From: Corallococcus sp. CA054B
Lineage (GTDB): Bacteria; Myxococcota; Myxococcia; Myxococcales; Myxococcaceae
Length of the DNA stretch: 20,729 nucleotides
Direction: 5' to 3'
Assembly (NCBI RefSeq): GCF_003611625.1
Contig: NZ_RAVY01000172.1
Location: forward strand, 1-20,729
Of the stretch, positions 2,450 through 4,178 are shown piece by piece. A model generated the notes under the pieces. It did not search any database. It saw nothing but the letters and a program-made list of their open reading frames with translations, and had not been told where the DNA came from. Within the stretch, counting starts at the first letter, position 1; each line of letters starts with the position of its first letter. The translations under genes were made by a program, and so were the position numbers.

Positions 2450-2493
2450 CAGCCGCCCGCACCGGAGAGGTGTCGGGCGGCTGTCCTGTTTCA
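2450..2493. terminator. Bidirectional intrinsic-terminator-like hairpin between convergent rdgC and the immunity gene
   Basis: Perfect 10-bp stem CAGCCGCCCG (2450-2459) pairs with CGGGCGGCTG (2474-2483) around a 14-nt loop, followed by TCCTGTTTCA. Confidence 0.5.
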
Positions 2494-3252
2494 GGGCAAA
2501 GGCGTTGAGCGTCCGCCGATTGCTGGAAAGCGTTCGTAGGCCCGCTTGAGCGCGTCCAGGTGCACGGGGTTGTCGTAGTCGAGCGGAGTCTCCGTGAGCT
2601 GCACGATCCACCCGCCCGACGGAGTGCGATGCGCCCGCGAGAGCAGCTCGGCATCGCGAGCAGGATCCGGGAACCCGATGACCTCCGCGGCGGCAGCGGA
2701 CCAGTAGTTCAGCCACCCCAGGAAATAGGGCGTCTCAGGCCTGGGGCTCTTCTGGGGAAGGTTGAGCATGGGAAGCCCACGGGGTGAGAGATCGGGCCCA
2801 TCCGGCGAGCGGCGGAACTGCTGCGCGACTTCCGAGCCGTAGCTATACGGCGACGCGTGTCCCCAGAACGAACGTGCACCTTCCGCCATGGCCTCAAGCA
2901 GTGGCGCCGCTGCCGCGAGCACAGTCTCGTCTAGTGGCAGCCTGGCATGAGCTTCAAACTGGGACTGACCGCCAGGACTGAAGAGTCCGGACCTGTCCCT
3001 TCCATTGACCGTCACGGCGTAGCTCTCGTCCCCATTGCATATGAGAGGGAATCCACCTTCTTTAATGCTCGCCAGGAGCCACGCGTCACGCTGTGGCAAT
3101 GGAATAGGGCGCCCGCCTTCACCTATTTCCCACTCCAGTCGTAAGCCGGGGAATGCTTTCTCCAGCCCATGGATGATGGCGACCGTGCGGCTGTCGTTAC
3201 TCATGAGCGCAGGTGCGTAGACAATGAGCGTAAATCTTTCTTGCGTAGTCAT
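2491..3252 (-). CDS. Putative immunity protein of the upstream lipoprotein nuclease toxin; family not recognised
   Basis: Track ORF 2491..3261 starts at GTG; the ATG at 3252 overlaps the toxin stop as ATGA (cgATGAct), implying translational coupling. The N-terminal third lies in the ~50% GC island. No signal peptide, so cytoplasmic. Confidence 0.5.
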   Translation of the reverse strand: MTTQERFTLIVYAPALMSNDSRTVAIIHGLEKAFPGLRLEWEIGEGGRPIPLPQRDAWLLASIKEGGFPLICNGDESYAVTVNGRDRSGLFSPGGQSQFEAHARLPLDETVLAAAAPLLEAMAEGARSFWGHASPYSYGSEVAQQFRRSPDGPDLSPRGLPMLNLPQKSPRPETPYFLGWLNYWSAAAAEVIGFPDPARDAELLSRAHRTPSGGWIVQLTETPLDYDNPVHLDALKRAYERFPAIGGRSTPLP

Positions 3253-4178
3253 CGTTGACACCCTGTAACGACGATAATGAGCGAAGGGTCCGCTGCCTCC
3301 AGCAACGCTTTGTGCGCCTTGGTGCTCACCCCAACGATGAAGTCATATCCACAAGCCTCAGCGACTCTTCGCTCACTCTCTAGTTGAATCAGTTCCTTTT
3401 CAATTTCCCTGTCGCGGATGAAATCATTGTACGAATCGAATTGGTGGGTCTTGATCTCCCACAGTTTGCGTACACCGACTTGCAACGCATCGAAGCGTGC
3501 ACCGCCAACGAGCACGTCCATCCCGGGATAACGGTTGGGCGGAACCTTGTCGGCACACTCATTGTGTATGTCGTCCCCGCCCGCGTGAGGCACGGGAACA
3601 GGCTCGCAACTGGCACGGCCCGTCCGGTCCACGGGCACAGGCGGCACCGGGGGCTGTCGGCCCTGGCCCGCTGGCGCCGGATCCAGCTTGGGCTTCGGCT
3701 TCGCTTCGGCATCTCGGGACGCAACCTTCGTCCCTCGTGAGGTCCCTGCTTCCTCGGGGTAGTGGTGGCGCAGTTCATATGCGTCCCATTCCTCCTGGAT
3801 GGCGACGGCGACCACCACCACGCCCAGGATGATGACGGCTCCCACGGCGATTTCAGGGGCCGCCAGCACGCAGAACCCGAGTCCCAAGGTCGCGGCGGCA
3901 GCGGAGGCGACCGTGCATCTTCCCGTGGTGTCGCGGAACTCGACCCGGTCATGGTCGAGCGCCGGATAGCACCGCTCCACCAGCACGGGCCAAGGCTGGG
4001 ACGCCTCGCGGACAACGCACCGCCCGTCATCCCTCCAGGGCAGCGCCGCCGCTCGTCGGAGGTTGGCGGCCCTCATGCCGCGGGCCGTTGACGCCCTGGG
4101 GTGTGGCTCCGTCGTGGCGCAGGCCGAGAAAACGAGCAGAAGCAAAAGGGCGCCGCAGGTCCGGAGACGCATGGCCAT
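3249..4178 (-). CDS. Lipoprotein polymorphic-toxin candidate: lipoprotein signal, Cys-containing N-domain, hydrophobic segment, Pro-rich linker, C-terminal PD-(D/E)xK-like nuclease domain
   Basis: Start MAMRLRTCGALLLLLVFSAC (lipobox FSAC) at 4178 inside track ORF 3249..4307. Hydrophobic stretch ATLGLGFCVLAAPEIAVGAVIILGVVVVAVAI. Linker KPKPKLDPAPAGQGRQPPVPPVPV. C-terminal ...PGMDVLVGGARFDALQVGVRKLWEIKT... carries a D-N12-ExK spacing typical of restriction-endonuclease-fold nucleases. The C-terminal domain sits in the lower-GC (45-55%) segment 3249-3540. Confidence 0.55.
   Translation of the reverse strand: MAMRLRTCGALLLLLVFSACATTEPHPRASTARGMRAANLRRAAALPWRDDGRCVVREASQPWPVLVERCYPALDHDRVEFRDTTGRCTVASAAAATLGLGFCVLAAPEIAVGAVIILGVVVVAVAIQEEWDAYELRHHYPEEAGTSRGTKVASRDAEAKPKPKLDPAPAGQGRQPPVPPVPVDRTGRASCEPVPVPHAGGDDIHNECADKVPPNRYPGMDVLVGGARFDALQVGVRKLWEIKTHQFDSYNDFIRDREIEKELIQLESERRVAEACGYDFIVGVSTKAHKALLEAADPSLIIVVTGCQR

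Follow-up and report, generated by a model that had tools for sequence, protein, structure and literature searches.

Two abutting genes on the minus strand of a 20,729 bp contig of Corallococcus sp. CA054B, the whole of which is referred to here as the window, raise the question of whether they encode a polymorphic toxin and its immunity protein, and of what the marked fall in GC content across their junction represents. The upstream gene (3249..4178, minus strand), identified by its open reading frame (ORF), translation and Pfam match to DUF6310, encodes a 309-amino-acid lipoprotein that is 100 % identical to D7V80_31280. The downstream gene (2491..3252, minus strand), identified likewise by ORF, translation and Pfam, encodes a 253-amino-acid DUF5953 protein without a signal peptide. 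The toxin stop codon overlaps the immunity start codon as ATGA (3249..3252, minus strand), as had been read in an earlier description of this DNA (the initial annotation). From the sequence, this overlap appears to couple translation of the two genes, and the same abutting arrangement is found in paralogues and orthologues. The analysis indicates that the pair is probably a two-gene polymorphic toxin-immunity cassette, with a proposed specificity segment and delivery by outer-membrane exchange.

The C-terminal part of the lipoprotein (residues 184-307) matches Pfam DUF6310 with an E value of 9e-57. An AlphaFold2 model of residues 176-309, built from 131 sequences, together with Pfam and motif evidence, predicts a PD-(D/E)xK fold for the toxin domain (residues 191-309; 3252..3608, minus strand). 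Comparison of the model using Foldseek placed chain 9oz0_B at the top rank (prob 0.99). Further structural matches are to other PD-(D/E)xK proteins: XisH-like proteins, AF1548, NucS, a restriction enzyme, DNases of the CdiA-CT type and the defence nucleases Card1, Can2 and HamA. The candidate catalytic residues, on the basis of the model and conservation, are D210 in the first helix, D230 (3489-3491) in the second core strand, and E241 (3456-3458) and K243 (3450-3452) in the third, all on the minus strand. The D, W, E and K positions are invariant in the 131 sequences; across 19 diverse domains D230, W240, E241 and the CAD aspartate are invariant and K243 nearly so. The PD-(D/E)xK nuclease-like domain that the initial annotation had proposed is therefore borne out by the modelled fold and the conserved D...ExK motif, but its D-N12-ExK spacing was wrong, the actual arrangement being D230-N10-E241-x-K243.

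The toxin motifs, FDA ... EIK, can be set beside the 'FDG ... EAK' by which Tox-REase-5 is defined, a family whose immunity family is Imm52 (Zhang et al., 2012; PMC3482391). The partner protein points in the same direction. It matches Pfam DUF5953 with an E value of 4e-113, and its model, which was derived from a shallow alignment (65-84 % identity) but still has high confidence, has the fold of TsiT/Imm52, the immunity protein of TseT. The proposal that the downstream gene encodes immunity is supported by this fold. At the level of sequence, Pfam Imm52 is touched weakly by six of 90 DUF5953 members (best E 0.056), the DUF5953 profile weakly finds BPSL2088 (4rho; E 0.018) through a shared TDAP..DNPxH motif, and some DUF5953 members are named 'Immunity protein 52 domain-containing' in UniRef.

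On the models, DUF6310 is thus best regarded as a predicted PD-(D/E)xK nuclease and a distant relative of TseT (Tox-REase-5), and both proteins as putative remote relatives of TseT-TsiT, whose kinship shows in fold, motif and partnership and escapes ordinary sequence profiles. Several results weigh against this relationship. A Pfam scan of the toxin at E<=1 returns DUF6310 only and no Tox-REase-5; the DUF6310 profile finds nothing among PDB sequences, TseT included; and no paper naming DUF6310 or DUF5953 was found in a literature search. The link to TseT rests on fold, motif and partner protein because sequence identity is about 10 % and there is no profile match. Single-sequence searches of both proteins against the PDB returned only noise, and NCBIfam models did not match either cassette protein. 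Comparison with toxin and immunity families, which had been suggested as a check, gives a divided answer: Pfam has no Tox-REase or Imm match at E<=1, and the likeness to TseT/TsiT is found at the level of fold. Taken together, it is very likely that the genes encode a nuclease toxin and immunity protein of the TseT/TsiT type.

The relationship is nevertheless remote. TseT-TsiT (PA3907-PA3908 of Pseudomonas aeruginosa; PDB 7dym, 9oz0) shows only about 10-13 % sequence identity to the cassette pair, and TseT is a type VI secretion system (T6SS) cargo, whereas the cassette toxin is a Sec-exported lipoprotein. Unlike TseT, DUF6310 has an additional N-terminal element ahead of the nuclease core, C191-x6-H198-x6-H205-x2-C208 (3555-3608, minus strand; conserved in >=90 %), and two further conserved cysteines, C276 and C307. 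These cysteines and histidines may form a metal site or disulfides.

A further question is whether the domain behaves as an exchangeable module. A full HMMER scan of 1.84 billion representatives yielded 301 relatives. DUF6310 forms the very C-terminal end of proteins whose N-terminal parts show no relationship. Carriers include four proteins with an eCIS core domain (one also with LysM), a transglutaminase core protein of about 1050 amino acids, a 989-amino-acid protein with two CBM2 domains, short DUF6310 forms adjoining T6SS genes, and proteins with two kinds of lipoprotein leader. Conversely, the N-module of the CA054B toxin (residues about 3-135) also heads proteins with different C-termini, one of which is Pfam Ntox16. 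In two N-module variants with other tips the next gene is Imm26 in one and Imm33-like in the other; the contigs of the Ntox16 fusion and of two further relatives are too short to reveal a downstream immunity gene. Where different tips are borne, homology between the N-modules stops just after the membrane helix described below.

The immunity gene tracks the toxin domain rather than the carrier. In Pedobacter the gene order is TssD (Hcp), VgrG, DUF6310, DUF5953, and a DUF5953 gene directly follows an eCIS_core-DUF6310 protein. In Povalibacter, a large transglutaminase protein has a run of small genes downstream of it; these include a DUF6310 fragment and, 1.7 kb on, DUF5953, with two unannotated ORFs in between. 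Corallococcus coralloides has four tandem lipoprotein/DUF5953 pairs, and paralogues number at least three in CA054B and at least five in C. coralloides CP034669. Against this, the gene following one transglutaminase-DUF6310 protein is unrelated, encoding 118 amino acids and no DUF5953, and so the DUF6310-DUF5953 pairing is strong but not absolute. Since the pair occurs in several delivery contexts and the N-module occurs with other tips and immunities, this is a genuine modular polymorphic toxin. A C-terminal domain on varied carriers, swapped tips and a downstream immunity gene are the features by which such toxins have been recognized (Zhang et al., 2012), and the swapped C-terminal toxin/immunity architecture suggested for this locus at the outset is upheld by the unrelated carriers of DUF6310 and by the N-modules with other tips and Imm26 or Imm33-like partners.

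At the T6SS-linked Pedobacter locus, the gene after DUF5953 (7584-8234) likewise resembles the DUF5953 profile in its C-terminal portion, and from its sequence it may be a second, divergent tandem immunity paralogue.

One complete cassette lies on a predicted viral contig, IMGVR_UViG_3300018954_000022, which over 74-10053 encodes, in this order, a portal, a prohead protease, an HK97-type capsid, the cassette directly behind it, DUF2381 and two Ser/Thr kinases. This cassette is 63-69 % identical to the CA054B pair and also shows a GC dip. A DUF2381 gene is found just downstream of the immunity gene on two unrelated contigs (2949-3884 on one; 5053-5949 of IMGVR_UViG_3300018954_000022), whose toxins have a common N-module and different tips, and this gives a hint of a conserved insertion site in a mobile-element family. 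Searches by tblastn against plasmids (both proteins) and cultured phages (immunity protein) found nothing.

Another question concerns the low-GC interval itself. Measured in 200-nt windows, GC is 0.50-0.60 across roughly 2900 to 3600, down from about 0.70, which agrees with the dip at about 2940-3540 described in the initial annotation. Windows of 300 nt reach a minimum of 0.50, about 4.8 standard deviations below the mean (0.692; standard deviation 0.040). As had been stated, the dip covers the C-terminal part of the toxin; its share of the immunity gene is about 41 %, not one third. The dip is visible both in amino-acid composition (GC at second codon positions down to 0.20) and at synonymous sites, with GC at third codon positions (GC3) of 0.4-0.6; in ten-codon blocks GC3 ranges from 0.3 to 0.9 and is <=0.5 in half of them. 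Over the whole cassette, GC3 is 0.73 (toxin) and 0.69 (immunity), compared with 0.86-0.97 for the neighbouring genes.

The dip is not the scar of a recent insertion at this locus, because each of the four paralogous toxin genes of the C. coralloides array shows it again at its 3' end; GC3 there is 0.69-0.77 in the cassettes and 0.88-0.96 in their neighbours. It is a family-wide property rather than a recent acquisition here. A recent horizontal insertion was considered and rejected on this recurrence and on the low GC3 throughout the cassette. A mere effect of amino-acid composition was also rejected, as GC3 falls too and a five-fold rise in synonymous divergence coincides with the dip.

This divergence was measured against the orthologous locus of Corallococcus interemptor, which has the same flanking genes, encoding RdgC and a major vault protein (96-99 % protein identity). 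Nucleotide identity is 0.93-0.99 in the flanks, 0.65-0.72 over 2885-3420 and 0.80-0.93 for the greater part of the remaining cassette. Synonymous divergence (dS; Nei-Gojobori) is 0.17-0.20 in the flanks, 0.37-0.41 in the N-module, linker and C-terminal half of the immunity protein, 0.93 in the toxin domain (191-309) and 1.07 in immunity residues 1-120, so that dS in the segment is about five times that in the flanks. The same pattern is seen in Corallococcus exercitus and is absent from Corallococcus carmarthensis, which has the CA054B allele type. Within the cassette, GC and identity are correlated (rho 0.82 and 0.68).

Divergence and GC together delimit a low-GC mosaic segment at 2893..3446 (minus strand), comprising toxin residues ~245-309 and immunity residues 1-120. 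The 109 full-length homologues have a mean identity to the CA054B toxin of 0.81 in the N-module, 0.85 in residues 191-244 and 0.59 in residues 245-309, and the identity of the tip shows no correlation with that of the N-module (rho 0.08). Mean identity of the immunity protein is 0.65 in residues 1-120, against 0.78 in the rest. The earlier suggestion that the low-GC interval is an exchanged piece fits these data well: the segment is hyper-divergent, assorts independently and spans the gene junction.

One feature runs counter to an interpretation of the segment as a site of selected change. The ratio of non-synonymous to synonymous divergence (dN/dS) is about 0.2-0.25 in every segment, which indicates deep divergence; this crude pairwise comparison picks up no positive selection. 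As dS rises five-fold and dN/dS stays constant, a swap for a long-diverged allele or paralogue accounts for the pattern better than accelerated evolution of the proteins would, and the divergence and independent assortment of the segment point to recombination among alleles and paralogues. It is thus likely that the interval at about 2893-3446 is an exchanged specificity unit. According to the models, this unit would comprise the last helix-strand-helix-strand of the nuclease and the N-terminal domain of the immunity protein, which presumably meet at a binding interface. Such a unit (about 65 toxin and about 120 immunity residues) is smaller than a domain, unlike the exchanged units of the CdiA-CT/CdiI and Rhs-CT systems with PD-(D/E)xK DNase tips (EC869, 4g6u; Yersinia pseudotuberculosis, 4zqu), which also differ in having giant filamentous or Rhs proteins as carriers in place of a small lipoprotein.

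The history of the locus provides further evidence. The variable island (2432-4714) lies between RdgC-like genes and the vault-protein gene. A complete cassette occupies this interval in one Corallococcus clade: it is found in CA054B, in C. interemptor, in C. carmarthensis and in C. exercitus AB043A. In C. coralloides KYC2213 the immunity gene is intact and the toxin deleted; in C. exercitus SDU142 the toxin is truncated just before the catalytic residues and the immunity gene is intact; strain RDP092CA has the immunity gene as a 3' fragment only. Retention of immunity after toxin loss is the expected signature of protection against neighbours' toxin. Seven other Corallococcus species have one or two tandem GDSL/SGNH lipase genes instead of the cassette, and C. 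carmarthensis has the cassette and a GDSL-type lipase both nearby.

How the toxin might reach such neighbours depends on its N-terminal half, in which the anatomy originally described (lipobox, cysteine-containing N-domain, hydrophobic segment, proline-rich linker and C-terminal domain) is all present. It begins with a putative type II (lipoprotein) signal peptide, MAMRLRTCGALLLLLVFSAC, read from the sequence at 4119..4178 (minus strand), with the lipobox FSAC and Cys20. A lipobox-like motif is found in 110 of 110 full-length homologues; position +2 is Ala in 109 and Lys in none, and +7 is Ala in four. In the CA054B toxin +2 is Ala and +7 is His. The sorting rule that Vassallo et al. used for SitA1 requires no Lys at +2 and no Ala at +7 for the outer membrane (after Bhat et al., 2011; PMC5562445), and by this rule an outer-membrane lipoprotein is predicted.

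Residues ~41-103 form a domain with four cysteines. Its conserved core, residues 41-91 (3906..4058, minus strand; RRAAALPW.D.GRC.V.EA..W..L.ERC..ALD...F.D..GRC.VA), was recognized by low column entropy in the 109 homologues; Cys54, Cys70 and Cys88 are conserved within it. Judged by sequence, this core is a candidate trafficking or 'escort' domain. It is followed by a hydrophobic segment, AATLGLGFCVLAAPEIAVGAVIILGVVVVAVAIQ (residues 92-127; 3798..3905, minus strand), a predicted membrane-spanning helix (Kyte-Doolittle 19-residue maximum 2.85) and the most conserved block of the N-terminal half. A charged, Pro-rich linker then extends over residues 128-190 (3609..3797, minus strand; sequence reading). 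The majority of the longer, unrelated architectures likewise have a hydrophobic segment and then a Pro-rich linker ahead of DUF6310, among them the T6SS-linked Pedobacter effector.

A second myxobacterial DUF6310 lipoprotein form, of ~205-230 amino acids, is almost the same in its signal peptide and lipobox, has a Pro-rich stretch (...PW.P.V.PKP...P.P.GL.PP.P...), and lacks both the Cys domain and a strongly hydrophobic helix.

T6SS effectors that depend on prePAAR and Eag have N-terminal transmembrane helices. The cassette toxin resembles them in having a hydrophobic helix beside a toxin domain that acts in the cytoplasm, and the Pedobacter DUF6310 effector beside VgrG has such a helix together with the Pro-rich linker. 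In contrast to these effectors, the cassette toxin begins with a signal peptide and lipobox, and its surroundings contain no genes for PAAR, VgrG or a chaperone. Hcp, VgrG and PAAR, which would mark a T6SS pair, are lacking from the window, and the toxin has a lipoprotein signal; at the Pedobacter homologue the marks of such a pair are present. The T6SS nuclease pairs of Myxococcus xanthus (PMC12077131) were considered and set aside as a different, PAAR-linked system.

Delivery by outer-membrane exchange is proposed by analogy with SitA, and the chances that it applies here seem about even. Two points tell against it. Within the 20.7-kb window there are no traAB, T6SS or mobile-element genes, and the strongly hydrophobic helix is hard to reconcile with Lol-type sorting of an outer-membrane lipoprotein. 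The helix could instead hold the protein in the inner membrane of the producer with the nuclease facing the cytoplasm. The toxin would then not be exported: the helix would be a stop-transfer anchor, the nuclease would be held inactive in the cytoplasm, and the genes would form an addiction or phage-defence (abortive-infection-like) module. The very hydrophobic helix, the cytoplasmic immunity protein and the translational coupling are consistent with this, as are the copy beside phage head genes and the frequency of PD-(D/E)xK nucleases in defence (Card1, Can2, HamA). It is nonetheless improbable. The lipoprotein signal is present in 110/110 members and there is a second lipoprotein form without a strong helix; the pair follows Hcp-VgrG and is fused to an eCIS core, both routes of injection; strongly acidic residues after the helix disfavour a cytoplasmic location for its C-terminal side; and the orphan immunity genes that persist intact fit protection from an incoming toxin.

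An exported toxin could travel by a route other than TraAB, such as vesicles, surface contact in predation or another secretion system, and its targets could include non-kin or prey. Myxobacteria shed lipoprotein-rich vesicles, DUF6310 is used by several delivery systems, and the window offers no link between the gene and traAB. The hypervariable allele-specific unit, multi-copy arrays and orphan immunity genes are, on the other hand, hallmarks of conflict between close relatives and not of predation, and the Sec/lipoprotein signal argues against T6SS loading in Corallococcus. There is little probability that such a route is used.

For delivery, SitA provides the best available model. The Myxococcus SitA proteins are lipoprotein toxins, encoded in an operon with a downstream sitI, that are TraAB cargo and occupy 25-80 loci per genome (PMC8546572), and many sitAI loci lie on prophage-like elements (PMC5562445). 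The cassette resembles SitA/SitI in its outer-membrane-type lipobox, C-terminal nuclease, overlapping cytoplasmic immunity gene and many paralogues, and also in its modular escort and toxin and its association with a prophage-like element. Its N-module is largely confined to the Myxococcaceae and Archangiaceae, to which nearly all named matches with the N-module belong. It differs in several respects. SitA escort domains alone are ~375 amino acids (PMC8546572), compared with 309 for the whole cassette toxin; the cassette toxin has an internal membrane-spanning helix, which is not described for SitA in the literature searched; and, unlike SitA/SitI, the cassette has no sitB-like gene upstream.

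This resemblance raises the possibility that the cassette belongs to one of the six published SitA/SitI families (SitA1/2, 3, 4, 5, 6 and 7) and is not a new one. SitA4, SitA6 and SitA7 each comprise one toxin family with varying alleles, and SitA7 is non-modular and a 'predicted DNase' (PMC8546572). SitA7 is thus the best candidate and a possible identity, the likeness being judged by description only; a literature search on SitA7 and SitA8/9 found no sequence-level description. Like SitA, the cassette is multi-copy, has mostly one toxin domain and is a predicted DNase, and one copy lies on a prophage-like contig, as do many sitAI loci. By sequence comparison the cassette toxin is not SitA6: BLASTP against SitA6 of plasmid pMF1 found nothing, and pMF1.20c/pMF1.19c, used as a positive control, match the NCBIfam SitA6/SitI6 models, whereas the cassette proteins match no NCBIfam SitA or SitI model. 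The sources name the proteins only as DUF6310 and DUF5953, and, besides the size difference already noted and the lack of any paper found that names either family, the SitA paper mentions transmembrane helices only for host proteins (PMC8546572). Identity with a published family is, on balance, unlikely.

With outer-membrane exchange taken as the working proposal, the following sequence of events is envisaged. The toxin would be lipidated at Cys20, directed to the outer membrane and handed on to neighbouring myxobacteria, most plausibly through TraAB exchange as for SitA. The helix and linker may then help the nuclease to cross the inner membrane of the recipient. The cytoplasmic DUF5953 protein most likely neutralizes the nuclease by direct binding, and specificity most likely resides in the ~65 residues at the C-terminal end of the toxin and the ~120 at the N-terminal end of the immunity protein. 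Recipients without a matching immunity allele would suffer DNA damage through the predicted nuclease activity, and recombination among alleles and paralogues would reshuffle the low-GC segment.

The pair was initially put forward as possibly new. Pfam families with hundreds of members already exist for both proteins, so it is not wholly new; both families are unstudied. A more tentative suggestion, and one more doubtful than the proposals made above for the pair and its segment, is that the cassette represents an undescribed family of myxobacterial kin-discrimination lipoprotein toxins. Such a family would have a small escort module with its own membrane-inserting helix, by which the nuclease could enter through a recipient's inner membrane with no hijacking of a host transporter, and a sub-domain barcode for self and non-self, distinct in base composition, that lies across the gene junction and is shuffled among paralogues, prophage-like elements and alleles.

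The analysis offers a likely function for DUF6310 (several hundred members) and DUF5953 (>1000), which occur in Myxococcota, Bacteroidota and Gammaproteobacteria. It also provides a candidate kin-discrimination determinant for Corallococcus and Myxococcus, with an unusual carrier that combines a lipid anchor and a membrane helix. The segment of ~550 nt is a testable specificity map that could help to engineer or predict strain compatibility. If the cassette does prove to be a published SitA family, the gain would be smaller, consisting of the fold assignment and the specificity map.

Several features surround the cassette. Just past the immunity stop codon, between convergent genes, an inverted repeat was found by reading the sequence (2450..2483, minus strand), CAGCCGCCCG and CGGGCGGCTG separated by 14 nt. 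It is a possible transcription stop, although a consensus terminator scan did not call the site. That scan found one site (1.2 expected by chance), a terminator-like hairpin followed by TTTTCAATTG at 4199..4224 (minus strand), between a small upstream ORF and the toxin start. This would indicate that the toxin-immunity pair is transcribed apart from the small ORF, but is only suggestive.

The small ORF (4249-4470, minus strand), directly upstream of the toxin, encodes 73 amino acids with a signal-peptide-like start and a six-cysteine tail ending ...CSASCKPCTTQYDCGDREGSCGVWRCTNPM. It has a GC3 of 0.85 and no Pfam match. Three other Corallococcus loci have it in the same position (76-85 % identity), the toxin-deleted one among them, and two loci whose cassettes are complete lack it.

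Elsewhere in the 20.7 kb, GC falls below 0.60 in only one further stretch, 16431-16900. This consists of intergenic sequence and the 5' signal-peptide/lipobox end of an 812-amino-acid Kelch/PKD gene, has a hairpin after the upstream gene and is ordinary-looking.

On the other side of the immunity gene, two plus-strand ORFs (1084-1755 and 1625-2431) lie in different frames with an overlap of ~130 nt that is kept in all the Corallococcus loci examined. The first matches the N-terminal half of RdgC and the second has no Pfam match. They may be adjacent genes, the second with a later true start, or one frameshifted gene. The gene at 4715-6991 (plus strand) encodes a 758-amino-acid bacterial homologue of the eukaryotic major vault protein, with Pfam Vault repeats 1-4 and MVP_shoulder. 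Its identity is 85-98 % in Corallococcus, Hyalangium, Archangium and Vitiosangium, and 68 % in a metagenome-assembled genome labelled Planctomycetota.

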